Origin: a virus
Virus record (IMG/VR): IMGVR_UViG_3300017987_000073
Coordinates: 1-64,000 of that record
Length of the DNA stretch: 64,000 bases
Reading direction: 5' to 3' (one strand)
Shown: in pieces, positions 11,361 to 45,735 of the stretch
Layout of the letters: each line of letters starts with the position of its first letter
Numbering within the stretch: the first letter of the stretch is position 1
Notes under the pieces: generated by a model
What the model saw: the letters and a program-made list of their open reading frames with translations, nothing else
Databases searched by the model: none
Told to the model about the DNA's origin: nothing
Made by a program: the position numbers and the translations under genes

Positions 11361-12018
11361 CAGAGGTACCCCTTCATCCAGACCGAGACGCTCCGGAGCG
11401 CGTCGTAGATCGCGTACGACCTCCGCGCCTCGTCCACGTTGATCAACATCCGGTTGGTCGCCTCCTGATGCGCCTGAGAGTCGATCGACTTCAGCTCGGG
11501 AACGTTCTCCGTCACGTTCTCGCGGATCTGATCCAGGCGCTCCTCGTACCGCTCCAGAACGCTACGCATCGTGTCCTCGACCTTGGCCTTGAGCTTCCCC
11601 CACCGCTCGAGCGCCCTCCGGAGGCGGTCTTCCGCGTCCTCCAGGAACTCCTCGAGGTCCTCCACCGAGAACTCCCTCGCGCGCTTCTCCGGCTCGCTCC
11701 ACCCTCGATCGTCCGGTACTCCACCGCGTGACCGTACTCCCGCGCGCTCTCGACCCCGAGCTCCATCCCCTCGGTCACCCCCAGGTCGGTGTAAATCGCC
11801 GTCGCGTGCGCCGCCCGGCGCCACTCGAACCCGGCCCGGATCCCGAGCTTCCGCTCCGCCTCGACCGCGTCGTTCAGGACCCCCCGCTGAGTGTAGAGCA
11901 GGTGCGACGCGTAGGGCGACTCCCCGCGGCCGATGCAGTCCCGGAGCGCCGCCCTTGCGTACGCCACGTTGAGCCGAACGTTCCCCTTGTAGGGGGACTC
12001 GACGATCACTCTCCTCAT
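11360..12018 (-). CDS. conserved phage protein (ESPYxG..ASHLLYTQ family) plus coiled-coil part, apparent frameshift near 11703
   Basis: frame of 11512..12018 turns to junk after VEYRTIEG; the -1 frame continues WSEPEKRAREF... to 11360. Confidence 0.6.
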
Positions 12019-15162: not shown

Positions 15163-16014
15163 CTAACCCTCCAGGTCGTACACCTCGGCGATCCTCCGAC
15201 CGATTATCTTGAGCCCGAGATCCCGCGCCACCTCGAACGCCGCCTCCGGGTCGAGCCGCCCCCTCCGAAACGTCACCGGGACGTCGTGGAGCGAGACGAG
15301 GAACCTCATCAACCCGACGTGCTCCCGCCCGGCCGCCCGGAGCTTCTTGACCAGCCCCTCCAACTCCCGCGGGATATCCCCCTGGGGGTGCCCCAGCGCC
15401 ATCATCTCCGGCACGACGGAGGGGTTCCACCCCAGCAGGGCGACGGCCTTCTTCTCCCCGATCCCGGGCACCCCGGGCACGTCGTCCCCGGTGTCCCCCG
15501 CCAACGCCTTGTAGTCCCGAAACAGTCGGAGCGGGACCGGGAGCCGATCGTTCGCCTCCAGGACGTCGACGACGCTCTCCTCCGACCCTATCCGAAGCAA
15601 GACGTGAACCTCGCGCGAGACGAGCTGAAGGAGGTCCTGGTCCCGCGTGAGAACCAGGACCGGTTGAGGGAGACACCTCGCGAGCGTCCCGATCACATCG
15701 TCCGCCTCCCACCCCACCGACCACGCCTGGTCGATCCCCAGGTGCGTGAGCAGACCGAGGAGGTCGTGGAGCTCGCCCCGGTACTCCTCGTCCGGCTCCT
15801 TGCCCCTCCTCGACTTCTTGTAGTCCGGGAACCGCTCCACCCGCTTCGAGACGTTGTCCTCCGGGTCCCAACAGACCACGAGCCGACGCTCCGGGTCGAG
15901 CTCCTGAAGCTTCAGGACCCGCTGAAGGAACCGGTGCGCGAGGGTCCGCCTCCCCGGCACGTAGGCGGCCTTCGCGAACCCGCACCCGTCCATCAGAGCG
16001 GTCTTGTACCTCAC
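15163..16014 (-). CDS. 5'-3' exonuclease (PolI N-terminal/FEN family)
   Basis: MDG, YK..R, EADDVIGT, TRDQDLLQL, ALAGDTGDDVPGVPGIGEKKA. Confidence 0.92.
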   Translation of the reverse strand: MRYKTALMDGCGFAKAAYVPGRRTLAHRFLQRVLKLQELDPERRLVVCWDPEDNVSKRVERFPDYKKSRRGKEPDEEYRGELHDLLGLLTHLGIDQAWSVGWEADDVIGTLARCLPQPVLVLTRDQDLLQLVSREVHVLLRIGSEESVVDVLEANDRLPVPLRLFRDYKALAGDTGDDVPGVPGIGEKKAVALLGWNPSVVPEMMALGHPQGDIPRELEGLVKKLRAAGREHVGLMRFLVSLHDVPVTFRRGRLDPEAAFEVARDLGLKIIGRRIAEVYDLEG

Positions 16015-16760
16015 TCGACCACCTCGCCGCCCAGCGTCGTGACCCCCTCCGTGACCAGCGGGAGGTTCTCCTTGAAGTACTCGAACACGTCCCGGACGCA
16101 CCCGCGGATCTGCCACTGCGCGTGGGCGTCCAGCCTCATCTTGAAGACGTGGCGCCACTGGCGAAGGTTGAAGGTCGTGTAGACCTCGGTCTTCGTCGCG
16201 TTCGGCAGGAGCTCCCGAGCGTCCTCCGAGGGCACGCTCCGAAGTCTCAGCTCCTGGTAACCCTCGTACGCCGCGAGAGTTTTCTGGCAGAAGACCTCGA
16301 ACTTGTGGGTGATTTCCTGGTAACCCTCGACAAAGACGCCACCACCCTCCGTCCGCCGGATCACCGTCCCCTCGGACACCTCGGCGATCGACGGCGGGAC
16401 GATCACCCGGAGCCGCCCCGACTCCTCCCCCGCCGGCGCGTAGTCGCAGTACCTTTGACTCTCCTGGGTGAACGCCGCGAGCCGGTGGCGGACGAGCTGG
16501 TGACTCATCGAACGCGAGCCCACGAAGCACGCCGTGAAGACCGCGTGCTCCAGGATCGACTCGTGCTTCCACTTGATCCCCACCTTCCGGATGAAGGGAG
16601 CCGCGCTCCCCGACTCGATCCGGTCCTCGGACTTGTGCGAGACCCGCCCGCACTCCTCGACCAGCCGGAGGGCGTGATCCGCCCACGCCGAGTCGTACTT
16701 CGGGGTGATCATCTCGGCGTGGGGTCTCACCACGACCAGCTCCGCTCTCTTCTCGGTCAT
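16011..16760 (-). CDS. thyX: flavin-dependent thymidylate synthase (canonical)
   Basis: HESILEH, SRSMSHQLVRHRLAAFTQESQRY, EDARELLPNA. Confidence 0.95.
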   Translation of the reverse strand: MTEKRAELVVVRPHAEMITPKYDSAWADHALRLVEECGRVSHKSEDRIESGSAAPFIRKVGIKWKHESILEHAVFTACFVGSRSMSHQLVRHRLAAFTQESQRYCDYAPAGEESGRLRVIVPPSIAEVSEGTVIRRTEGGGVFVEGYQEITHKFEVFCQKTLAAYEGYQELRLRSVPSEDARELLPNATKTEVYTTFNLRQWRHVFKMRLDAHAQWQIRGCVRDVFEYFKENLPLVTEGVTTLGGEVVE

Positions 16761-17389
16761 AACAGCCTCCCTTTCAACCGCTCGACGCCCAGTTGCGCGA
16801 GCTCGACCCCGGCGCGCCGGAGCAGTTTGCAAGCCTCCTCCGAGAGCCCGTACCGGCTCCCGTAGTCCTCGGCGAAGACGACCCGCGAGATCCCGACCCG
16901 AAGGAACCGCTTCGAGCAGTCCCAGCAGGCGCTCGCCGTCGTGTAGACCGTCCCGCCCTTCGGGGACACCCCGTCGAGCGCGCACTGGAGGAGCGCGTTC
17001 TCCTCCGCGTGAAGCGTCCGAACGCAGTGACCCCCGCTCATCAGGTGCCCCCCGACCAACTTCGCCCCGCACTCGGGGCAGAGCGGCGGTCCGTCGTCCC
17101 GCGGCCTCACCTCCAGGTTGGGCGCGGCCGCGATCAACTCGACCTCCGCTCGATCGGCCTCCCACTCGCACTCGGGACAACGATACTCGTCGCAGTGGGG
17201 CTCCCCCGGGGGGCTCCCGTTGTACCCCCCGGCGATTATCCGGTTGTCCACCGTGATCACAGCCCCGACCCCGTGCCTCCCCGGGTCGAAGAGGAGCTCC
17301 GGTCCGCGGTCGCAAGTGGAGCGCGTCGCCGCCAGATGAGCGTGCAGCATGAAGAACTCGTCCCAGGGGAGACGTGGAATTCTGAACAT
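16757..17389 (-). CDS. dCMP deaminase with Zn-ribbon insertion
   Basis: RSTC, GYNG, HAEENA, CWDC; inserted CPEC...CPEC. Confidence 0.92.
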   Translation of the reverse strand: MFRIPRLPWDEFFMLHAHLAATRSTCDRGPELLFDPGRHGVGAVITVDNRIIAGGYNGSPPGEPHCDEYRCPECEWEADRAEVELIAAAPNLEVRPRDDGPPLCPECGAKLVGGHLMSGGHCVRTLHAEENALLQCALDGVSPKGGTVYTTASACWDCSKRFLRVGISRVVFAEDYGSRYGLSEEACKLLRRAGVELAQLGVERLKGRLL

Positions 17390-22889: not shown

Positions 22890-23233
22890 TCGCTCCCTCC
22901 TATCAGGCGAAGCACCGCCTCCGCCTCGTTGGTCATCATCGCGTGCACCACCCGGGCCACCACCCGCCAGAACGCCCCGCCCTGGCGGTCCCGCGGAAGA
23001 TCGAGATCCCGGTCGTCCTGGAGGAGCTCGAGGTGTTGATCCACCGAAAGCACCGGCCCGAGCGTCCGGAGCCTCTCCTCCGGCTCCGGAGCCGAGACGT
23101 TCCCCGCGACCAGCGCCTTCCCCAGGTCCCGCGCCACCTCCTCCGGGCAGTCCCTCAGCTCGCCCTCGACCCGCGCCCGCTCCAGGAGCCAGGCGAGCGT
23201 CGAGCTTCTGATCACCGCGTAGCCGTCGCTCAT
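22886..23233 (-). CDS. hypothetical protein
   Basis: start MSDGYAV with ATGA overlap. Confidence 0.55.
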   Translation of the reverse strand: MSDGYAVIRSSTLAWLLERARVEGELRDCPEEVARDLGKALVAGNVSAPEPEERLRTLGPVLSVDQHLELLQDDRDLDLPRDRQGGAFWRVVARVVHAMMTNEAEAVLRLIGGSE

Positions 23234-23913
23234 TCCAACCCCCTCGCGTCGAACCGCGCCGGTCCGAGCCCGACCCCCGGGAAGTGCTTGTGACGCTCCG
23301 TCCCGTCCGCCAAGTCGACCAACTTCTTCGCGGCCCCCTCCACCGGCGCCGTCTCCGCGTCCACCGGGACCTCCGCCTCGGGCAGTCGCCGCACCCCGAC
23401 CAGCTCCGGAGCCAGCAGGTGGTAGACCCCCAAGTTCGGCGGTCGGTGCCAATAGTCGAGGGCGATCCGGAGCGCGTGGTCCATCACCTCGTGGATCTGC
23501 ACCTTCGCCCGCGTGGTGAAGGACGAGGGCTCACTCGTCGTCCCCAGCGTCACGAACCGCTTGACCGGCGCGCCGGCGTTCACCAGGTTCAGGAGAAGGT
23601 CGACCCCGCCGTTGACGTACCCGCTCCACGCCACCCGGTAGAGGGCCCACTCCCGCTCCACCGGGTGTCGACACGCCAGGTGAATCACCGCCTCGACCTC
23701 CCCGAACCGCTCCACCTGGAAGTGCGCGTGGTTCACGTCCGCCCGGACGTAGGTCACCGAATGCTGTGGGTTCCGGAACTTCGGCTCCTCCCCCTCGTCC
23801 AGCCAGCACGTCGAGTGATCGTCCACCACGATCGCTCGGTGCCCCCGCTCGACCAACTCGTCGACCACGTGGGACCCCACGAATCCGCACCCACCCGGGA
23901 TCAGAACGATCAT
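23230..23913 (-). CDS. NAD-dependent epimerase/dehydratase family protein (degenerate C-terminal half)
   Basis: GGCGFVGSHVVDELV..VVDD..VIHLA; no clear YxxxK. Confidence 0.8.
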   Translation of the reverse strand: MIVLIPGGCGFVGSHVVDELVERGHRAIVVDDHSTCWLDEGEEPKFRNPQHSVTYVRADVNHAHFQVERFGEVEAVIHLACRHPVEREWALYRVAWSGYVNGGVDLLLNLVNAGAPVKRFVTLGTTSEPSSFTTRAKVQIHEVMDHALRIALDYWHRPPNLGVYHLLAPELVGVRRLPEAEVPVDAETAPVEGAAKKLVDLADGTERHKHFPGVGLGPARFDARGLE

Positions 23914-27558: not shown

Positions 27559-28242
27559 CTCCGACCTCCTTCGCGAACGGCTGATCCAGCACGTTCACGG
27601 GTTGCTGCTTCGTCGTCCGCAGGAAGCCCCGACGCTCCGACTCCGGGAGGTCCTCCAGCTTCACCTCACCGGCGCGGATCCGGAGCTCCGTCCGAAGGAG
27701 CTGGGCGATCACGTAGGCGTCCGCCACGTTCCCCGCGGCCCCGTCCGTCTTCCCGAACTCCAGGAAGTTCCGACCCTCCCACTTGTCCCGACACGCGAGG
27801 ACCATGTCCGCCTTCTCGGCGTCCCCCCGCCCCGTAGCGAAGATCTTGACCCCCTGGACGTCGTAGGCCCTGAAGGGGATCCCCAGAAGCAGGAGCTCGA
27901 TCCTCACGAGCCCCCCGACCTCTCCGAGCGAGTGCGCGAACGCCTTCCGCGCCAGAGCGTAGTCCTCGAGCGCCGCGTGGGTCGGCTTCCACTTCGCCAG
28001 GAACGCCCCCAGGTTGACCCGCAGGTCCGCCAACCGAAGCACTCGCCCGAGCTCGTCCCCCGCCTTCACCTCCCGCGGCGCGAGCGCGCCGAGTTCCCTC
28101 TGCTTCTTGCGGCGGTCTTGTTGTCGGCGTAGTACATCAGATCGACCAGCGCGCCGTCGACCAACGCGACGGCCGCCGTCCCGCGCGCCGACTGATCGAT
28201 CCCGACCAACGGTCCGGACCCCGCTCCGATCAGTCGCTTCAC
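27551..28242 (-). CDS. RuvC-like Holliday junction resolvase, frameshifted near 28108
   Basis: VGIDQS in one frame; LEDYA, VKIFATGRGDAEKADM, NVADAY in the -1 frame. Confidence 0.8.
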
Positions 28243-29105
28243 CGCTTCCTCCTGTCTTCCATCAACCGCCTCGCCGCGGCCCGCACCTGCTCCGGATCCC
28301 GCTCCACGTAGTAACAGACCCGCTTCGCTCGATCCGCCGCGACCAACGTCGTCCCCGTCCCCCCGAAGAGGTCCATAACCAGACCCCCCTGGGTGCTCCC
28401 GGTCCGTACGAGCTTCTCGATCACGTCCAGCGGCTTCTGAGCTCGGTTCAAGAACTCCCCGTCCTCCCTCCGAAGTCGCTCGACGGTGTGCACCACCGGC
28501 CGCTCGACCCACCACGGGCAAACCACCGGGAAGAACTCCCCGTCTGGCGCCGCGACGAACCAGCTCCGCTGCTTCGGGAGGTTGTCCAGATAGAAGGGAG
28601 CCCCGACCCCCGAGCTCATCACCAGGAATTCGCATGCCGAGGCGACGCAGGCCTTTCTGATCGAGTGTGGCGGGTTCGACTTGGCCCACACGTAGGTGGG
28701 CCACACCTTGAGACCCACCGACCGGAGCGCCCGCTTCACGTCGGAGAGCCACCAGTCCGAGGTCCAGACCCACACGTTCGCGTGTGGCGCCAGACGTCCC
28801 GCCGCGGACGCCAACCGCTGGAGGAGTTCCTCCATCTGCGCGTCGTCGACTTTGTCCCACTTCTCCTCGAAGTGCTGGTCCTTCCGATCCCTCCGCTCCT
28901 TGGAGTTGGTCTTCAGGGACGTCAATCGACTCGCCACGTCGGCGAGTTGGTAGGGCGGATCGGCGACCACGAGCTCGACGTTCCCGATCCCGATCAGGTC
29001 CTTCAGGAACTTCGCGTCCGTGGCGTCCCCGCAAGCGACCACGTGACCCACCTCCGGGTCCTCCCAGACGAACCCGGGAGCTATCTCCGCGCGCAGGTTC
29101 TTCAT
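28239..29105 (-). CDS. N6-adenine/N4-cytosine DNA methyltransferase (beta order)
   Basis: DPPY, QKP, DLFGGTGTT. Confidence 0.92.
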   Translation of the reverse strand: MKNLRAEIAPGFVWEDPEVGHVVACGDATDAKFLKDLIGIGNVELVVADPPYQLADVASRLTSLKTNSKERRDRKDQHFEEKWDKVDDAQMEELLQRLASAAGRLAPHANVWVWTSDWWLSDVKRALRSVGLKVWPTYVWAKSNPPHSIRKACVASACEFLVMSSGVGAPFYLDNLPKQRSWFVAAPDGEFFPVVCPWWVERPVVHTVERLRREDGEFLNRAQKPLDVIEKLVRTGSTQGGLVMDLFGGTGTTLVAADRAKRVCYYVERDPEQVRAAARRLMEDRRKR

Positions 29106-36597: not shown

Positions 36598-39478
36598 TCA
36601 CCCCTCTATAACCGCGATGCGGACGCGCGGCGACCTGCGGAGTTCGTCCAGCTCTGGAGGTCCGAGAACCCCCTTCGGGTTCGCCCGGATCTGATCGATC
36701 GCCTTCTGGACCTTCTTCGGGTCCCGAAGCCACTTCTTGTAACGATCGACCAACTTGACTCGTCGCTTCCGCTGCGAGACGAGCCACCGCGTCCAGTCCT
36801 TGCCCGGGTAAACCACCTCCAGGATCCGCTGAGACGCCGGATAAATCACCTTGTCCCAGTAGTACTCGGGGTCGTAGGTGATCTCGTCGCTCTCCTCGTA
36901 CTCGTCCCTGGTCACCCCCTGGAGAGGAGACCCGGACTTCGTCACCACGTACTCAACCTTCATCCCGACGAAGAACTCCCGCCCGTGCTCCCGGATCTGC
37001 TCCGCCAACTTCACGTGGAGGGATTGACTCTTGTACCTGTCCGGCTCCTTGCTGATCCCCTTCCCGATCACCACGTCGTCGACCGTGAGCTCCCCGGCCA
37101 GACAACTGTCGAACGCCGGCTCGACGATCTCCCGCTCCATCTCGTCCGCGTCGATCCCCTTCATCAGGATCGCGTCGAGCACCGCCTTCTGGAGAACCCG
37201 CGTCTTCCCCGAGCAGTCCGAGCGCATCACCTCGAGCCCCTTGACCTCGACGTGGTCGGTCTTCCCGCCCTTGTGAGACAGCATCCGGCCGGCGTACCGC
37301 TTCTTCTTGACGAAGAAGATCCGGTCGAAGATATCCTCGAACTCCAGGAGGATCGCGTTCCACTCCAGGTTGCAGTTGCACTCCTTCAGGATCTCGACGT
37401 ACCGCTCCTGACAGTAATCGACGAACCGCTCCCCGATCGCGTTGAGCTCGGCGATCCGCTCCTCCTCCGTCGCCCACTCCTGGTCGGTCGGCGCCAGTTG
37501 GATGTACACCGAGTCCGTGTCACCGTAGAGCGGCGCGAACCCGTTGGCCCGGGCGAACTTCTCGGTCAGTTTGATGAAGAACTGACCGGAAAGGGTGATC
37601 GCCTCCGCTAACTCCGTGTCGTAGAACCGACTCCTCGAGTTCCCCATGTCACCGTAGAAGGACAGCCCGAGCCTCTTGAACGAGTAGGCGAGTCGGTAGT
37701 ACAGGAGGAACAGATCGTCCTGAGTCGTCCCCACCACCTCGAGCCGCTGCTTCTGGAGGTCGGTGTACTTCTTCCGCCGCTCGAGCGTCCTCTCGAACAT
37801 CTGGGAGATGTACCCCTGTTGATCGATCCGAAAGGTTGTCCCACCCTTGTGAACGACGACCGGCGACCCATCTTCACCCACCTTGTCCAGATCTATCTCA
37901 GGGATCCTGCACAGTTGCGTGGGGTCGAAATCCGGCCGAGATTCGGTCTTGACTATCGTCTCCGGCGAAATGTTGAAAGCCCGCACCATCGACGGGTACA
38001 GGCTCTTGAAGTCGAACGCCGCCACGTTTCGGTGCATCCCCACCTGGGGCGGGAAGACGTAAGCCCCCTCGTACTGGTCCGGCTTCCTCGGCGACCAGTA
38101 CCTCGTCCGGAAGTGATGACCCTCCTTGAAGCCCTTCTTCAGGAGAAGCTGATCCACCTTGGTGGAGATCTGGAAGTCGTTGGGAAACCCGTTGGCGATC
38201 CGGCAGAAGAGCTGCTCCACCATCACGAACCCGGTGAACGCCTCGAGCTTCCGGAGGATCGTCGAGTCCAACCGGTTGTACTCCTCCAGAAGCTCCGGCT
38301 CGTACCGGTACAGGTTGATGAACTTCGGCGTGATCCCCGGCCGCCGCTCCCGGAAGATCGTCCTCCAGTCCAGCTTCTTGATCTTCAGGACCTTGTCCCC
38401 GATCGAGTCCAGCGAGAACGAGATCGCGTCCCCACCGGCGCGGACGTAGTGCCGCTTGAAGATCGGCAGGGGGTCCACGAGGAGGTTGTACCTCCAGTCG
38501 ACGAAGATCTTGTGGTGGTAGAATCGATAGATCAGGACCGGGAAGTCGAACCCCGTCCCGTTCCACGCGCAGTGGACGTCGTACTTGCTCAGGCACCGCC
38601 TCTTGAACTCGAGAAGCATCTCCCGCTCGGCCTCGTCCGTCTCCTCCCGCAGGATCACGAAGCCCTGGTCGTCGGGGTCGTCCTCGACCCGGTCCCCCTC
38701 CCACGCTATCGACAGGATCCGGTTGTGCTCCTTGTTGTCGAAGCCACCGACGGAGTCGTCCGTCTCGATGTCGATGAATCCCATGTGAAACTTGGGGTTG
38801 ATCCGAATATCGTAGTCCGTGAGGAAGCGTTGCTTCGGCGTCAGGTCCGCCTCGAGCGGCTCGACTCCCTTCCGGTCGCACCACCGGAGCGTCCAGTGAA
38901 CGTCGGTCCACCGGTCCCGGTCCTGCGGAAACCTCACCGCCTGCGGCCGCTCCCCGAGCCAGAAGGCGTCGGCCCAGTGACCCCCGTACTCCGGGTCCCC
39001 TACCCGCTGAAAGTACCGCTTCCGGTTGAACTTGGGGAAGTTCTGCTCGATGTAAACTCGATAGTAAAGCTCCGGAAAACGCGGATCAGGCTCGACCCGC
39101 TTCGCGTGGTTTCGACAGAGCCAGGCCCACTTATCCTCGGGCACCTTCCGGTAGTCCTCCGCCGTGATGTAGAAGTACCACTCGAACGGGTGGACCTCCT
39201 TCACCCGCCTCCCGGTCGCCGGGTCCCTCGTCAGGAGGACGATATCCTTCCCGTCCGACCACCCGTGGTAGTAGTAGGTGTGAGGGTTGAAGACGAAGGA
39301 GGAGTCCTTCATCTCGTCGAAGTCAGCCGCCTCCGCGAGGTCCTCGAACGCCCGCTTGTCCTTGACCTTCTTGGAGTCGATCGCCTGCTCGTACTGGGCC
39401 CGGTGCTCCACCTTCTCCGAGAGGTCGTCCTCGAGCGCCTGGGTGTCCGAGTCCTGGATCAGGTCAGCGCCGGCTCGA
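36598..39478 (-). CDS. family B DNA polymerase (start unresolved; probably fused to upstream UDG-like domain)
   Basis: DIETD, NGTGFD, YNRLD, DFKSLYPS, KRLGLSFYG, YGDTDS, KKRY. Confidence 0.95.
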
Positions 39479-40046
39479 AAGCCTCCCTGATCCTCCTCGC
39501 GTCCCTCTCCAGGTTCGTCCACTTCCGAAGCGTCGAGATCGGGTGACGCAGGAGCACCGCCTCCGCGAGCGTCCCGTCCACCCTCCTCCGACTCCCGAAG
39601 TCGCTTAACCCGAGGGGGGCGCCCGCCGCCCTCCCGAAGACCAAAACCCTCCTCAAGTTCGGAAGGATCTCCAGTTCTCTCCTCAAGTGAATCTTCCAGC
39701 ACGTCTCGACCTCCTCCGGTCTGAGTTCTCGGTTCCCCGGCGTCGCGCACTTCACCGCGTTCGTCGCGTAGACCTCCCGAAGGTCCAGCTCGGCGACCCT
39801 CGACAGATGCCAGAACGCCCGCGCCGCCCCGCGGAGCTTCAGCGCGGCCGCCCTGGACCCGAGCCGCCCGAGGAGCGGCGCCAAAAAGCACCCCACGCAC
39901 CCCCACCCCTCGGCCACGACAGATGGGTTCAACCCCACGACCGCGATCCTCGCCCCCGCCGGCCCGTACCCGACGCACCTCGGGAGACCGAGGTCACCGA
40001 GCCCGCAGGCGCGGCAAGCTCCGGTTCTTCTCAAGAGCACTCGCAC
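39459..40046 (-). CDS. uracil-DNA glycosylase superfamily domain (family 4/5-like, 4Fe-4S)
   Basis: CRAC, GLNPS, TNAVKC, ETC, HP. Confidence 0.85.
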   Translation of the reverse strand: MRVLLRRTGACRACGLGDLGLPRCVGYGPAGARIAVVGLNPSVVAEGWGCVGCFLAPLLGRLGSRAAALKLRGAARAFWHLSRVAELDLREVYATNAVKCATPGNRELRPEEVETCWKIHLRRELEILPNLRRVLVFGRAAGAPLGLSDFGSRRRVDGTLAEAVLLRHPISTLRKWTNLERDARRIREAFEPALT

Positions 40047-40569
40047 CCAAGATCCCCGCGTTCAACGCCGTCTCGACCCCTCGGATCAACTCCTCCCTCG
40101 CCTTCGTCCGATCCGAGGTCTCGATCCCCAGCAGGTTTCCCCCGAGCTTCAGCCACTCGTTCGCCACCTGGTAAAACGAACTCTGAATCTTTATCTCCGT
40201 CTCCAGCGTCCGCCGCGGAACCCCGTCCCGCTCGATCACCCGACGCCGAGCCGCTTCGACCGGACAGTCCAACAGGAAAACCCACACGCTCGCTGCGAGG
40301 TACCGCTTCAGGTCGTGGGAGTACCCCCTCATACCGTCGTACACGACCGAGGAGAGCGCCCAGCGGTCCGCCACGAAGTCGAAGCGCCGCGAGAACGCCA
40401 GCAGATCGAAGTTGCACTGAATCCCCAGCTTGTAGATCTCCACGTCCGAGAGCTCCCCGATCGCCCCGTGCCGCACCGAGTCGCGGAAGACGAAGAACCC
40501 GAACTGCTTCAGCGCCTCGCACGCCGTGGTCTTCCCCACGCCGTCGATCCCCTCGATCGCGATCAGCAC
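39994..40569 (-). CDS. dNMP (thymidylate-like) kinase
   Basis: IAIEGIDGVGKTT, ADRW..S..VY, FLLDC. Confidence 0.88.
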   Translation of the reverse strand: MLIAIEGIDGVGKTTACEALKQFGFFVFRDSVRHGAIGELSDVEIYKLGIQCNFDLLAFSRRFDFVADRWALSSVVYDGMRGYSHDLKRYLAASVWVFLLDCPVEAARRRVIERDGVPRRTLETEIKIQSSFYQVANEWLKLGGNLLGIETSDRTKAREELIRGVETALNAGILGASALEKNRSLPRLRAR

Positions 40570-41623
40570 GACGCCACCCCCTCCGAGGGTTGTCCGGACG
40601 GCCCGGCCCAAAAGCCCGCCTTGCCATCGACCTCGAAGAGCTGTCGATCGGTCCTCGCCAGGTCCTCGAAGGTGACGTCCTCCGGTCGATCCTCCTTCGC
40701 ACCCGGTATCACGATTCCTAGCTGCCTGGAGATCGTCTCCCGATCCGAGCACGCCTCGTTGAACTGCGCGACGTTCGGATCAGCGGGACCCGGACCCTTC
40801 ACCTGGTTCCGCCACACGATCGGTACAGACACCCGAACGCCTCCGCCGTCGTGTGCGCCCGGTGGTAGCAGCACGCCTCGACGAAGTCGCACCGCGGCCG
40901 GAGCCACTTCGAGAGGTAGGGAAACGCGTCGTCCTTCCCGAGCCTGTCCCGCAGGAGCCACGCCACCGCGACCGTGTCCTCCGCCTCGCTGAACGTCATC
41001 CGCTTGGCGCAGAGGTTCTTCAGCGCGGCGTAGTTAATCGACATCACGAACCGGTGCACGCACGAGATCGGGAGCAACTCCCGCGCCTCCTGCCAGGAGG
41101 TCACCCCGTCCGACAGAAACTGACCGTAAGCTCGCTTCGCGTGCTCCGCCACGTCGATCGCCTTCTTCAGCTTCATCGGATCCCGCCACGTCGACTCGTG
41201 GAACCGAAAGGGGACGTCCGCGTGGTTGTTGTCCCGCGTCCCGAGCGACGCGAAGACCACCCCGAGCCTCGCCCGGGCGATCTGGTCGAAGCTCCACCTC
41301 GAGAGCCCCTGCACCGCGAAGGTGAACTTCGGCGCCTCGAGCGCCAGGGGAAGCGCCCGCCCCATAAGCACCGACCGCACCACCTCGAATCGGTGCTCCG
41401 GCTTTGTCCGATCCCACCTTATCGCCTGGTTCGAGACCGCCGATCCCCAGGTCGCCACCGCCATCGTGAAGAGCGACCGGTAGGGGTTCATCGGCGCGTC
41501 GATCAGATCCACCTGAATCCCCTCGACCCCTCGGAAGTACCGCGTCTTGACCCGCGGCGCCTGGTGAGGGAGCGTCCCCAGTTGCTCCCGTATTTCCCTG
41601 ATTATCTCCGCTCTGCTTCTCAT
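40563..41623 (-). CDS. divergent ThyX-fold flavoenzyme (second paralog); apparent frameshift near 40812 joins a C-terminal extension
   Basis: ALEAPKFTFAVQGLSRWSFDQIARAR..GTR, QEARELLP, INY..L....KR. Confidence 0.8.
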
Positions 41624-42576
41624 CTCGACCCCTCCAAAATTCTGCTCACCTCCTCGAGCGCCCGCCCAAGGTCGGAGACCTTCGTCGCCCCCTCCACGTC
41701 GATCCCCCGGTTCAACTCCCCGGCCACCAGCACCACCCGCCGACCGATCCCCACGACGTCGGACGCGACGACCGGGTCGTCCTCCACCATCGCCACGAGT
41801 CCCGGGAAGTCGTCGAGGATCTTCCGGTGCTTCTCCGGGTGGAAGAGGATCCCGTCGAACCGAAGTTTGTTTGAGTTGAGCCACTCCAAAGTGTCGGCGT
41901 AAATCCGACTGAAGCGCCAGTAAGGACGACGCGAGAGGAGAACCACCGTCCCACCGGCCGCGCGAATCCCGTCCAGGAGCTCCTTCGCCCCCTCCTTCAC
42001 CCCCTGGAACCGTTTCTCCCCGCTCCGACGGTAGTGATCCTTGCTGATTTCGTAACCCTCCGCCCCGATACTCGCCTTCAAATCGGCTCGCGTCTCCGCG
42101 TTCACGTCGTTCGGAAGTGACTTCCGCGCGAACTTCAGGTACGAGGTCGGCCAGTCGTTAAGAACCCCGTCGACGTCCACCCCGACGATCGGGTCGCTCG
42201 GAGAGATCGCCCGGAGCCGCCGCTCCATCCCGTACCGACACTCCACGACCTGACTCTTCCTCCCGAACTCCTCGAAGACCTCGGCCGCCGTGAAGCCCCA
42301 GACGTTCGCCAGGCCCAGCAGGAACTTGAAGCAGTCGACCCACTCCTCGAGCGCGTTGGACCGCACCACCTCCCCGCCTCCGGCTTGGTGCATCTTCCAG
42401 GGCGTCTCCCGGAGGAACTCGTGGAGCTCCCCCTCCACGTGAAGAACGAATTGCTTCGTCCACTCCACCCGGCCCGCCTTCGAGAGCTCGTCCAGGTCGA
42501 GCCGGTGGTCCTGGAACACCCTCCGATTGAACTCCCGTTGACGATCGAAGATCTCGTCCAGTCTATCCGATTGCAT
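41620..42576 (-). CDS. all-alpha dNTP pyrophosphatase (dimeric dUTPase/dCTPase-like) fused to HAD 5'-nucleotidase
   Basis: GELHEF..PWKMH..LEEWVDCFKF; DVDGVL...VEDD. Confidence 0.85.
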   Translation of the reverse strand: MQSDRLDEIFDRQREFNRRVFQDHRLDLDELSKAGRVEWTKQFVLHVEGELHEFLRETPWKMHQAGGGEVVRSNALEEWVDCFKFLLGLANVWGFTAAEVFEEFGRKSQVVECRYGMERRLRAISPSDPIVGVDVDGVLNDWPTSYLKFARKSLPNDVNAETRADLKASIGAEGYEISKDHYRRSGEKRFQGVKEGAKELLDGIRAAGGTVVLLSRRPYWRFSRIYADTLEWLNSNKLRFDGILFHPEKHRKILDDFPGLVAMVEDDPVVASDVVGIGRRVVLVAGELNRGIDVEGATKVSDLGRALEEVSRILEGSR

Positions 42577-43522
42577 ACAACTCCTCCGCGACGTCGTGGA
42601 TCCGGATCGCGTGGTCCCACCGCGCCATCCGTCCGACGTGTCTGACCAGACCTCCCCACTCCTCCGCCTCCCTCGAGTCCCCGAGCACCTGCACCCGTGC
42701 GCTCGGTCCAACGTGCACCGCCTCGACCGCCTCGCAGAACCCCAACGGGGCGTCGATCGAGTTGAACTCGTAGACGCACCCCCGCGCGGGAGGCCCGCAG
42801 AGGAACTTCACCCGGTCGAAAAGAAGCGCCGGCTCCACGTTGTACAGAAACTCCCGAACACCCCGCCGCCGCTCCTTGGCGATCCCCACGTTGAACGGCT
42901 TCCCCACGACCCACGTCTTCCACCCCGCTGAATACTCCCGCCGATCTCGGAACCCCTGGGTATTGGTGAATTCGGGGGTCAGAGAGTCCCAGATCGGCGC
43001 CGGGAGGGTGTTGATCACCCGAGTCGCCCGAACGGGTTCCTCCAACCCCTGGACCCGAAGAAACGCCTCCACGGCCCCGGAGCTCGTGACCTCGAGCACG
43101 CGTCCAGGAACAATCGTCACTCGCGCCTCGAGACGCCGAACCAGTTCATCCACCGAGACGTCGAACGTCTCGATCCCACCCGAGCGCCCCGAGCTCGCCG
43201 CCGAGTCCGGAACCAGCGTCTTCAGACCCTTCAACCCTCGACTCCGGCGGTAGTAGTAGGCGCGGAGTTCCTCGGGCACTCGGTCCACCACCTCACCACC
43301 CGGGGCGATCCAACCGAACCGCACCGTCCGAGGGCGAAACCCTCCCCCTCCAACCTCCTTCAGGAGCCGCTCCGTCGCCGGAGTCCTCCACAGGTAAGTC
43401 GGGGCTAACTCCCGAAGTCGAGAATCACCACCGACGTTGTCCCCGATCACGAGGTCCGCGCGCAGTATCGCCGCGGCCACGAGCCCGACCGGACCCGCTC
43501 CCAACACCACCGTTCTGTTCAT
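42563..43522 (-). CDS. FAD-dependent oxidoreductase (UDP-galactopyranose mutase/HemY-like fold)
   Basis: VVLGAGPVGLVAA, VGG, INTLP, VGRMARW. Confidence 0.75.
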   Translation of the reverse strand: MNRTVVLGAGPVGLVAAAILRADLVIGDNVGGDSRLRELAPTYLWRTPATERLLKEVGGGGFRPRTVRFGWIAPGGEVVDRVPEELRAYYYRRSRGLKGLKTLVPDSAASSGRSGGIETFDVSVDELVRRLEARVTIVPGRVLEVTSSGAVEAFLRVQGLEEPVRATRVINTLPAPIWDSLTPEFTNTQGFRDRREYSAGWKTWVVGKPFNVGIAKERRRGVREFLYNVEPALLFDRVKFLCGPPARGCVYEFNSIDAPLGFCEAVEAVHVGPSARVQVLGDSREAEEWGGLVRHVGRMARWDHAIRIHDVAEELYAIG

Positions 43523-43525
43523 GGA

Positions 43526-44236
43526 TCACCCGGAGTAACGACGCATCACGCGAAGACAGATCGCGATCACGTCCTTCGCGATCTCCCCCACGTAGAAGTA
43601 ATTGGACCTCCCGAGATGACGACGCTTTCGCTCGACCGCGTCGTGAAACTCCAGCCCGTCGATCTCGTCCAGAAAACCGTCGTCAACCGAGAAGTGGACG
43701 TTGAGACCACGACGAAACACCGCGAATCTCCTCACGAGGTTGTTGTCGTAGTAGGTCGTATATTGACCGTTTCGCTTCTTGGTCCAGCCGTCCGGCAGGT
43801 GCTCGGCGAGCTTCTCGTTGATCTGATCCGCCTCGATCCCGGAGAGGTCCGATTGTCGGGTCTTGTCCCGCCGCTCCTTCTCCTTGCGCTCGACCTCCTC
43901 GACCACCTCGTTTCGGTCCCGACCGTCGACCTGAACCCCGACCTTCTTCGCCCGCTTCTGGAGTTCCTCGGCGTCGATCTGCGGGTCCTCCGTGTCGTCC
44001 AGCACCACCCCGCACGCCCAGCACACCTCGATATCCCCGTCGATCGGCGACTGACACTTCCCGCAGACGTAGGGAAGGTCGTGCTCCTCCTCCTCGAGCT
44101 TCTTCAGCACCTCCGTGTGGGCGGTCTGAAGCTGGCGTGCCCTGGGCTTCCACCCGAAGGCTTTCTCGCAACTATCCTTGAGGGTCTTCAAGTTCAAAAC
44201 CTTGAATCGCGGTCCCTCCAGTTCCGGTGTCGTCAT
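43526..44236 (-). CDS. Zn-ribbon hypothetical protein
   Basis: GGAGGTGA SD; CGKC..CWAC. Confidence 0.7.
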   Translation of the reverse strand: MTTPELEGPRFKVLNLKTLKDSCEKAFGWKPRARQLQTAHTEVLKKLEEEEHDLPYVCGKCQSPIDGDIEVCWACGVVLDDTEDPQIDAEELQKRAKKVGVQVDGRDRNEVVEEVERKEKERRDKTRQSDLSGIEADQINEKLAEHLPDGWTKKRNGQYTTYYDNNLVRRFAVFRRGLNVHFSVDDGFLDEIDGLEFHDAVERKRRHLGRSNYFYVGEIAKDVIAICLRVMRRYSG

Positions 44237-44271: not shown

Positions 44272-44859
44272 CTACTCGATCAAATCCTCGAACGCCGCTC
44301 TCAGTTCGGAGATGATCGGATCGCCCGGCTCCAGAGGTGAGTCGTCTACCTCCAGGATCTTGGCGATCACCACGCGAGCCTCCGCGCTCAGCTTGCGCTC
44401 TGCCCCCCGGATCAGGAGCTCGACCGCGAACTCCTCCTCCGTGTGGATCGACCCAAGGTCCCCGTCCGTGATCTCGGTCGGCGTCTCCGGGTTGACCAAC
44501 CGGCGCGCCTGCCACCACATCGCGGTCCGCGCCGAGCACTCGACGAACGTCCCGAGCGTCACGAGCTCCGAGACGCCCCGGATCCCGTGCTCCTCGAGCG
44601 CGTGTTCCACGAGGTCCCTCCGCTGGAGGAAGACCTCGCCGCACCTGGAGCAGAACCAGACGAATCGGCGCGTGCTCTTCGAGATCGACAGGAGACCCTC
44701 GTTCACGAGGTCGTCCGCGGTCGCGGACGGGAGGGTGGGAAACTTCTGGAGGGTGACGTTCGCGGTCCTCTTCAACCACTCCCCGTACTCGACCGCCACC
44801 TGATTAAACGTGTTGTTGCTTGGCTTTGCCCGATACTCCCTCAGCACGGACTCGTTCAT
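44272..44859 (-). CDS. sigma70 region-2-like protein with inserted C2H2 zinc finger
   Basis: ADDLVNEGLLSISKSTRRF-[CSRCGEVF..DLVEHALEEH]-LGTFV...AMWWQAR. Confidence 0.65.
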   Translation of the reverse strand: MNESVLREYRAKPSNNTFNQVAVEYGEWLKRTANVTLQKFPTLPSATADDLVNEGLLSISKSTRRFVWFCSRCGEVFLQRRDLVEHALEEHGIRGVSELVTLGTFVECSARTAMWWQARRLVNPETPTEITDGDLGSIHTEEEFAVELLIRGAERKLSAEARVVIAKILEVDDSPLEPGDPIISELRAAFEDLIE

Positions 44860-44943: not shown

Positions 44944-45660
44944 CTAACCGGCGACTTGTGCGGCCTCCTCCTCCGCCTTGAGCCGAGAGAGACGCTCGTA
45001 GGTCAGGAGGACGGACCGCACGTTCGAGGCGTACCAGATCCCCCCGTTTTTCGACTTCACGCCCCGGTTGTTCAGCCGCTCGGCGATCGCGTGGTAAGGG
45101 AACCCGCTCTCCCGGAGCTGCACCATCCGCAGGAGAACCTTCATCTCGGGCCCGTGCTCGACGAGCTGCTTCCCCTCCTTGGCGAACCCGAAGGGCGTCT
45201 TCCCGTAGACCCGCCGCTGGCGCGCGCACCGCTCCGAGGCGTCCCGGCACCTCCGGGAGATCTGCTCCCGCTCCATCTCGGCGACCGCAGCGAGGATCGT
45301 GAGGGTGAATCTCCCGTGAGGCGTCGAGGAGTCGATCTGCTCCCGGACACTCACGAACCCGCGACCAGCGCGCTGGAGCTGGGATACCAACCCCAAAAAG
45401 TCCAGCACCGACCGGGAGAGTCGATCGATCGCGTAGACGATCAGGGCGTCCGCCTCCCCGTCCAGGACCCGCTCGAACGCCTCCCGCACCCCCGGCCGGT
45501 TTAGAGACTTCCCGCTCTTCCCCTCGTCCCGGATCACGTCCACGATCTCCGCGTCGACCAGGTCGGCGTAGGACCTTATCTTCGCCTCCTGGTCCGCGAG
45601 GGAAACCCCGTTCTTCGCTTGGTGAGCCGTAGATACCCGAATATACGAGATTAGCTTCAT
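44944..45660 (-). CDS. serine recombinase (resolvase catalytic domain plus short recombinase DNA-binding domain)
   Basis: YIRVST, SGKSLNRPG, DRLSRS, AEMERE, PFGF. Confidence 0.95.
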   Translation of the reverse strand: MKLISYIRVSTAHQAKNGVSLADQEAKIRSYADLVDAEIVDVIRDEGKSGKSLNRPGVREAFERVLDGEADALIVYAIDRLSRSVLDFLGLVSQLQRAGRGFVSVREQIDSSTPHGRFTLTILAAVAEMEREQISRRCRDASERCARQRRVYGKTPFGFAKEGKQLVEHGPEMKVLLRMVQLRESGFPYHAIAERLNNRGVKSKNGGIWYASNVRSVLLTYERLSRLKAEEEAAQVAG

Positions 45661-45670
45661 CTCTCCACCT

Positions 45671-45735
45671 CCCTTATACACTTATTGTAGCAGTTTAATA
45701 CAGTTTGTAAAGGGAAGTGTACAACTAAGTGTACG
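45671..45735 (-). promoter_or_regulatory. recombinase promoter / possible res-like site
   Basis: TTTACA-16-TACAAT with TGn; four TACA(C/G)TT motifs in both orientations. Confidence 0.65.

Follow-up and report, generated by a model that had tools for sequence, protein, structure and literature searches.

We analyzed the first 64 kb (64,000 nucleotides; hereafter, the window) of the 80.6-kb IMG/VR virus record IMGVR_UViG_3300017987_000073, which comes from an uncultured marine or sediment phage, and focused on six genes at positions 36598-43522. These include a gene for a protein with the fold of the flavin-dependent thymidylate synthase ThyX (the ThyX-like gene) and end with a family B DNA polymerase (PolB). 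The ThyX-like gene and the cassette around it are real, intact, strongly conserved and restricted to viruses. The cassette is a unit that persists across lineages with three non-homologous replicases (PolA, PolB and PolIII-alpha), and it always lies beside the polymerase. We give about an even chance to the reading that the cassette is a phage nucleotide-pool pathway, which would provide a C5-modified, non-canonical deoxyuridine monophosphate (dUMP) to the adjacent polymerase. What we observed is how the genes are laid out, that the ThyX-like gene is intact, its predicted fold and residue pattern, and how far the family and its synteny are conserved.

Anatomy of the cassette and integrity of the ThyX-like gene

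A first-pass annotation of this DNA had claimed six co-oriented open reading frames (ORFs) in the region. All six were present on the minus strand and were coupled start-to-stop in the order X319, MazG-HAD, ThyX-like, kinase, uracil-DNA glycosylase (UDG), PolB. The same annotation had named a canonical ThyX at 16011-16760 and a deoxycytidine monophosphate (dCMP) deaminase; both were confirmed by Pfam, 24 kb from the cassette. The genes and the single sequence anomaly are listed below (aa, amino acids; nt, nucleotides; dTMP, deoxythymidine monophosphate; dNMP, deoxynucleoside monophosphate).

43522..42563, minus strand: X319, a predicted 319-aa flavin adenine dinucleotide (FAD)-type flavoprotein, by fold and a GxGxxG start; first gene of the invariant core
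42576..41620, minus strand, ATG start: fusion of an all-alpha NTP pyrophosphatase (MazG/dUTPase_2-like) to an HAD phosphatase (MazG-HAD); 14-nt overlap with X319; GGAGGAG ribosome-binding site
41623..40563, minus strand, ATG start: ThyX-like protein, 353 aa with the missing base restored; its start shares ATGA with the stop of MazG-HAD; Pfam Thy1 E 2e-13
40811, no strand: one-base deletion, C missing behind this position, which falsely truncates the ThyX-like ORF at 40799
40569..39994, minus strand, GTG start: dTMP-kinase-like P-loop dNMP kinase; GTGCTGA overlap with the ThyX-like stop; Thymidylate_kin E 2e-10
40046..39459, minus strand, GTG start: divergent member of the UDG superfamily that resembles family 4; a gene of its own, immediately upstream of PolB; Pfam UDG E 2e-9
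39411..36598, minus strand, GTG start: PolB, family B DNA polymerase with a 3'-5' exonuclease domain; DNA_pol_B E 4e-46
16011..16760, minus strand: canonical ThyX with an intact RHR...SQRY; Thy1 E 1e-46; TIGR02170 125 bits (cut-off 88); placed in the RHR clade by the tree
16757..17389, minus strand: dCMP deaminase, supplier of dUMP; Pfam dCMP_cyt_deam_1 E 5e-15

In the window record, the frame of the ThyX-like gene breaks at TGTGGC^GGAACC, where relatives imply GGCCGG, and the C-terminal extension lies in a different frame (ORF 40563-40961). The C behind 40811 is carried by Logan contigs of three runs, namely X1 (depth 153), X3 (131) and X6 (4); the window record itself may derive from two of these runs, and one is a separate low-depth sample. 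The same contigs have T for C at 42473. In P0001, a relative with 97% identity, the frame reads through where the window record breaks. Homologues are 310-400 aa in length, and after "...SCG" they share a conserved extension, RNP...FNExC[ST]D...QLGIxIP.... The frameshift is an error or a minor variant of the window record, and the true gene is intact and encodes 353 aa. A programmed frameshift or a pseudogene was ruled out by the extra C in the three other assemblies, and the site is not slippery. The ORF 40799-41884, which the first-pass annotation had assigned to this protein, was wrong at both ends; the gene starts at 41623 and, with the missing C in place, ends at 40563.

The junctions further downstream were also assessed. 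The overlap between the kinase and UDG genes is 53 nt and is explicable without a frameshift. The start of PolB at 39411 was set by comparison with locus L001. A fusion of UDG to PolB, or a recoded PolB start, was ruled out because L001 has the same two-gene layout, with ATG at the place that matches the GTG at 39411 in the window.

A ThyX fold with rewritten catalytic residues

The ThyX-like protein consists of a ThyX core and a Cys-rich, conserved C-terminal extension of ~100 aa. An AlphaFold2 model built from 63 sequences reached a pLDDT of 94.3 and a pTM of 0.93, and its top 50 Foldseek matches in the PDB were all ThyX or the UMP/dUMP methylase also named PolB (hereafter, polyoxin PolB), with E ~1e-10, target TM 0.6-0.75 and 16-19% identity. 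The Pfam Thy1 model passed with 51 bits (cut-off 24.8); the NCBIfam thyX equivalog (TIGR02170) failed with 29.4 bits (cut-off 87.9). BLASTP between the two ThyX proteins of the window showed no significant similarity, and a single-sequence phmmer search of the ThyX-like protein against the PDB gave E ~0.5, indicating that the link between the two proteins is seen by profiles and folds only. The family profile aligned to Mycobacterium tuberculosis ThyX with E 8e-5.

We mapped the pocket residues by combining this sequence alignment with published residue roles (PMC6514825, PMC8316439), and M. tuberculosis numbering is used for the kept arginines and the FAD contacts. Little or no variation was seen at R87, R95, R97, R107 (R or K) and R199; in ThyX, these arginines bind the dUMP phosphate and base and the flavin (PMC6514825). 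R174 of Thermotoga maritima ThyX activates uracil by N3 deprotonation (PMC8316439), and this uracil-activating arginine is invariant in the ThyX-like family.

The ThyX signature RHR-x7-S-x-R-Y is not matched, and the ThyX-like protein reads RAR-x8-G-T-R-D. S88 is invariantly replaced by Gly, and Y91, the Tyr "lid" and general acid of ThyX, is invariantly replaced by Asp; the His of RHR (H79) is Ala as the family norm, with other residues in some members. The position of T. maritima H53 (M. tuberculosis H75), which from the T. maritima literature we take to be the folate-stacking His, is occupied by Ala (in LEA), and the His that precedes the conserved Gln is Asp. The phosphate and ribityl contacts to FAD made by S71, H96 and R190 in M. 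tuberculosis ThyX align to Leu, Ala and Ala, i.e., three of the five known contacts are lost. In true ThyX, each of the mutations S88A, R90A and Y91A makes methylene transfer much slower, and for Y91A the effect exceeds 100-fold (PMC8316439). The first-pass annotation had pointed to a change from SHQLVRHR...SQRY to FDQIARAR...GTRD, and the alignments showed that the changes are real and common to the whole family. To judge from these alignments, the altered catalytic positions are fixed rather than decayed.

A word-indexed search for homologues returned 88 clusters, all of them metagenomic and on contigs of up to ~110 kb, and an exhaustive search returned 228 clusters (50% identity, E<=1e-3), including 38 at E<=1e-30. 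In a tree of 134 rows, all 47 rows with the FDQ motif fell into one clade (62 rows, SH-aLRT 99), apart from the RHR clade that includes the canonical ThyX of the window. That is, the ThyX-like protein belongs to a monophyletic, virus-only clade and is more than a casual duplicate, as had been proposed. FDQ..RxR..GxRD can be used as the recognition motif of the family. A second unusual ThyX-like group (P0133-P0224) reads THQLVRTR...GGRD, i.e., the His of RHR is lost and SQRY has become GGRD; it is placed between canonical ThyX and the FDQ family in the tree and is intermediate by motif.

Inteins are typically found within the functional cores of important or essential nucleotide enzymes. In the ThyX-like family at least 4 insertion sites occur, each within a conserved motif (F|DQ, GxRDN, KRxxF|CE or the RAR loop), in the relatives P0090, P0091, P0096, P0120, P0135 and P0145. 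Their location in conserved motifs argues against a decaying pseudo-enzyme. The PolB of L001 (L001:11921-16384, 1487 aa) also has an apparent intein, inside the YGD|TDS motif.

Conservation, partner proteins and neighboring genes

A ThyX-like relative was present in 18 IMG/VR loci, and the members of the cassette were counted over 19 loci by tblastn, all-against-all ORF clustering, Pfam scans and profile-profile comparison. The ThyX-like gene was found in 19/19 loci and MazG-HAD, adjacent or close to it, in 18/19, the exception being a truncated contig. A flavoprotein gene lies directly upstream in 18/19 loci; it is X319 in 12 and, in 6, a 250-aa homologue that matched X319 in hhalign (98%, E 3e-13). 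This core of flavoprotein, MazG-HAD and ThyX-like protein persists down to ~36-45% identity. The dTMP-kinase-like kinase, in two size classes, and UDG were each found in 14 of the 19 loci, an RmlD/epimerase-type short-chain dehydrogenase/reductase (SDR) in 9, and an adjacent dCMP deaminase in 5. The first-pass annotation had proposed a base-modification pathway and had looked to conserved synteny as a check; the three core genes do co-occur, in 18-19 of the 19 loci, with the kinase in 14 and UDG, beside or fused to the polymerase, in 14.

UDG is free beside PolB in the group of the window. In L007 (10998-13397) it forms the C-terminal part of a fusion with PolA, and in L008 (6162-9962) the N-terminal part of a fusion with PolIII-alpha. 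The PolIII-alpha ORF of L010 (11724-15413) is linked to UDG by ORF clustering alone, and Pfam shows it without a UDG domain; in L013, Pfam shows just PolA and exonuclease domains. The UDG of the window passes the Pfam UDG superfamily model (38 bits) and scores far below the cut-offs of the family 4 models (TIGR00758, 37 bits against 125; NF040953, 38 against 250).

X319 had no Pfam, PHROG or NCBIfam match, and its profile found nothing significant among PDB sequences. Its predicted fold is a confident two-domain flavoprotein fold of the class that includes UDP-galactopyranose mutase (UGM), protoporphyrinogen oxidase and amine oxidase. Among UGM and related GR2-class flavoproteins, UGM was the best structural match (Z 21.1), followed by related oxidases (Z 17-19). 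However, X319 shares 12% identity with UGM, lacks the Pfam match and is shorter than any UGM, and protoporphyrinogen and amine oxidases score just 2-4 Z units below UGM.

MazG-HAD reached 20.1 bits with Pfam dUTPase_2 (E 8e-4), below the cut-off of 22.9, and its PHROG matches were an NTP pyrophosphohydrolase, a dUTPase and a PNK-phosphatase. In profile searches against the PDB, dimeric dUTPases were the best matches of the MazG half (E 6e-5), with a weak match to DCTPP1, and the HAD half showed a weak likeness to 5'(3')-deoxyribonucleotidase. The metal-binding ExxE...ExxD of the MazG half and the DxDGV...DD of the HAD half were kept in 15/15 aligned homologues. The kinase scored 35 bits with the dTMP kinase equivalog, for which the cut-off is 83.

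No family member was found among cultured phages (INPHARED), where only weak matches to ordinary ThyX were obtained. A search of 185,579 species genomes returned four contigs of metagenome-assembled genomes with a family member and no isolate. The phage of the window is abundant in sediment and seawater metagenomes. Across window positions 39400-43600, runs X1 and X3, one from a sediment and one from a seawater metagenome, gave word depths of ~153 and 131 on contigs of 75 and 58 kb. Material for direct chemistry of the phage DNA exists, given this abundance.

The window has 62-69% G+C, and nearly all of its genes are on the minus strand. Pfam scans show a region of replication and nucleotide metabolism, with a class II-type ribonucleotide reductase, dCMP deaminase, canonical ThyX, Rad50/Mre11-like proteins, RecA, DnaB, primase, helicases, a serine recombinase and a DNA methylase of the N6/N4 type. 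The following features, all on the minus strand, lie outside the cassette.

44944-45681, minus strand: serine recombinase with Resolvase and Recombinase domains, directly upstream of the cassette
44272-44859 and 43526-44200, minus strand: two ORFs without a family match, directly upstream of the cassette
28239-29105, minus strand: N6/N4 DNA methyltransferase, Pfam N6_N4_Mtase E 4e-17
23230-23913, minus strand: 227-aa ORF that matches just the N-terminal half of NAD-dependent epimerases/GalE; truncated, or another record error
11512-12018, minus strand: DUF7768 protein, E 3e-26, in an early region with many adjacent ORFs without a family match

The order of the serine recombinase and both upstream ORFs is kept in L001-L006. 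The presence of the N6/N4 methyltransferase suggests that the phage DNA probably also bears ordinary methyl marks. BLASTP detected no similarity between the epimerase-like ORF and the RmlD-like SDR found in the cassettes of relatives.

Candidate pathway and competing explanations

From the gene content and residue pattern, we infer the substrate, the product, cofactor use and every enzymatic step of a candidate pathway. dUMP would be supplied by dCMP deaminase and by the dUTPase-like half of MazG-HAD, and the HAD half may clear a competing canonical dNMP, most plausibly dTMP. The ThyX-like enzyme would grip dUMP by the kept arginines, and C5 would be activated via the R174-type arginine. With the Ser, the Tyr "lid" and the His that stacks on folate all lost, the product would be other than dTMP, e.g., 5-hydroxymethyl-, 5-hydroxy- or another 5-substituted dUMP. 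The UGM-like flavoprotein could supply reduced flavin or tailor the substituent, the dTMP-kinase-like kinase would phosphorylate the product, and the UDG beside or attached to the polymerase may excise plain uracil that has been misincorporated.

Known systems provide parallels to this pathway. The ThyX-like protein has the same fold as ThyX/FDTS (T. maritima TM0449, M. tuberculosis ThyX; PF02511) and keeps the arginines that bind dUMP and flavin and activate uracil; however, identity is only 16-19%, the signature is rewritten, a C-terminal region is added and the family forms a separate clade. Polyoxin PolB of Streptomyces cacaoi (PDB 4p5b), of polyoxin biosynthesis, is the only characterized neofunctionalized ThyX paralogue and a C5 methylase that accepts UMP as well as dUMP, according to a 2018 review (PMC5954106). 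It is among the top structural matches of the ThyX-like protein; like that protein in the window, it accompanies a housekeeping ThyX, and it was recruited to give a C5-modified uridine nucleotide. The phage family differs in its location within a replication cassette, and its catalytic residues are rewritten.

Cassettes of a thymidylate-synthase homologue, a kinase and a dNTPase make 5-hydroxymethyl- and 5-hydroxypyrimidines, and flavin-using 5-hydroxy-dCMP synthases occur in clusters with TMPK-like kinases, dCTPases and HAD phosphatases (PMC13326640). The systems of T4 gp42, SPO1 gp29 and RB69 gp48 (PMC13326640) follow the same logic as the present cassette, with a thymidylate-synthase homologue that acts on the mononucleotide, a dedicated kinase, a deoxynucleoside triphosphate (dNTP) pyrophosphatase and an HAD phosphatase in the cluster. 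The comparison of 19 loci upheld the analogy to T4 and SPO1 drawn by the first-pass annotation, since a homologue distinct from the housekeeping enzyme is clustered with a dNMP kinase and a dNTP pyrophosphatase. These known synthases, however, have the ThyA fold, and the cassette here has the ThyX fold. In papers of 2021 and 2026 in NAR, all phage synthases described as modifying pyrimidines are homologues of ThyA. ThyX can methylate dUMP from formaldehyde via a flavin carbinolamine, without folate (PMC8316439), suggesting that loss of the folate site need not end C5 chemistry.

UDG-polymerase fusions or adjacency mark SP-15-like phages with T-modified DNA (PMC13697223). Bacillus phage SP-15, in which thymine is hypermodified, has two Thy1 proteins, gp9 and gp130, and gp130 was hypothesized in 2018 to be an hmdUMP synthase (PMC5977210). 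SP-15 resembles the window in having one canonical-like and one very divergent ThyX-fold protein, and its polymerase is likewise accompanied by a UDG. In structure, gp130 matches the ThyX-like protein; as a sequence relative of the family it was ruled out (hhalign probability 2.6%, family motifs missing). In SP-15 (L023:45026-46911), gp130 starts at the last base of the SDR gene gp129 ("acyl carrier protein reductase"), which echoes the SDR of the cassette.

Several points weigh against a pathway to C5-modified dUMP. Base modification in phages of this group is itself presumed from gene content. Standard shotgun sequencing yields deep, ready assemblies of these phages, and any modification is thus not of the sequencing-blocking kind. 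Neither a glycosyltransferase nor another DNA-level tailoring enzyme was seen in the ORFs scanned. The loss of FAD contacts at S71, H96 and R190 makes flavin use by the ThyX-like protein putative. A canonical ThyX is also encoded by five genomes including that of the window, which is awkward if thymine is fully replaced, and a dUTPase-like, a thymidylate-synthase-like and a TMPK-like protein together with dCMP deaminase also have the look of plain deoxythymidine triphosphate (dTTP) supply.

In a rival explanation, the ThyX-like protein would simply make dTMP as a flavin-dependent synthase that has diverged very far, either folate-independent or using a partner reductase, and the cassette would be an ordinary dTTP supply running from dUTPase through thymidylate synthase to dTMP kinase. 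We consider this unlikely, yet still a serious contender. Searches of whole records found canonical ThyX in G001, G003, G006 and G007 and in the genome of the window, i.e., in 5/11 genomes. It was missing from G002 and G008, which are complete, and from four partial genomes, which show the ThyX-like protein only. ThyA (PF00303) was not found in five of those six records, including G002 and G008; G009 was outside the search. G002 keeps a dCMP deaminase, and the absence of both known synthases from two complete genomes is what a dTMP synthase in the cassette would explain. The retention of all dUMP-binding and dUMP-activating arginines and the resemblance of the neighbors to dimeric dUTPase and dTMP kinase are also consistent with it, and because true ThyX can use formaldehyde without folate, loss of the folate His need not end dTMP synthesis (PMC8316439). 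However, such an enzyme would be redundant in the 5/11 genomes with a canonical ThyX, and this co-occurrence argues for a non-redundant role of the ThyX-like protein. The Ser and Tyr of methylene transfer are invariantly replaced, and Y91A makes this step >100-fold slower in ThyX; the score is far under the cut-off of the thyX equivalog. Moreover, an always-fused HAD phosphatase, an invariant flavoprotein and a recurrent RmlD-like SDR would be superfluous for dTMP.

It seems decidedly improbable that the ThyX-like protein modifies dCMP (to a 5-methyl, 5-hydroxymethyl or 5-hydroxy product) in the manner of T4 gp42, with canonical ThyX covering dTMP and the pyrophosphatase acting as a dCTPase. 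The genome of the window does pair a housekeeping thymidylate synthase with a second enzyme of thymidylate-synthase fold, dCMP deaminase, a kinase and a pyrophosphatase, as in T4; the new invariant acidic residues (D for T. maritima H74 and D for Y91) could contact the cytosine amino group; and the MazG half has its weak profile match to DCTPP1. The first-pass annotation had favored C over T as the modified base because canonical ThyX is retained. This argument does not generalize, since canonical ThyX is often absent in relatives, including the complete G002 and G008. The R174-type arginine, which stabilizes N3-deprotonated uracil, is invariant, and a guanidinium opposite the 4-amino group would be unfavorable. 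The dCMP deaminase, kept in G002 and located within the cassette in distant loci, would drain dCMP towards dUMP, and the fused nucleotidase would destroy dCMP. The arginine, the deaminase and the nucleotidase together favor dUMP over dCMP as the substrate. We also assign a small chance to a role unrelated to DNA bases. The substrate of the ThyX-like protein and the UGM-like flavoprotein would then be a cofactor or a sugar linked to a uridine or thymidine nucleotide, or the ThyX-like protein would sense nucleotides without being a catalyst. However, the cassette always adjoins the replicative polymerase (with UDG in 14/19 loci) and not structural or lysis genes, the motif inteins and strict conservation argue for catalysis, and the scanned ORFs showed neither a nucleotidyltransferase nor a glycosyltransferase.

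For the preferred reading, a pathway to C5-modified dUMP, we considered one specific chemistry. The ThyX-like protein may work without folate and, together with the UGM-like flavoprotein, hydroxylate or alkylate dUMP at C5 by way of a flavin-N5 adduct, formed with oxygen or with a larger aldehyde than formaldehyde; we regard this version as improbable. If true, it would define a new class of thymine replacement that is wholly at the mononucleotide level, e.g., 5-hydroxyuracil or a polyhydroxyalkyl-uracil of the SP-15 type, and the enzyme would be the first DNA-modification synthase with a ThyX fold.

The family is virus-restricted and abundant in marine and sediment samples, and it has defined partners, namely the flavoprotein, MazG-HAD and the kinase. 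A ThyX-fold counterpart of the known synthases, if true, would mean that modified DNA has evolved by two independent routes, and it would extend flavin-N5 covalent catalysis. Should the product prove to be a new base, this would be relevant to the evasion of restriction and CRISPR, to metagenomic "dark matter" and to enzymes for modified DNA.

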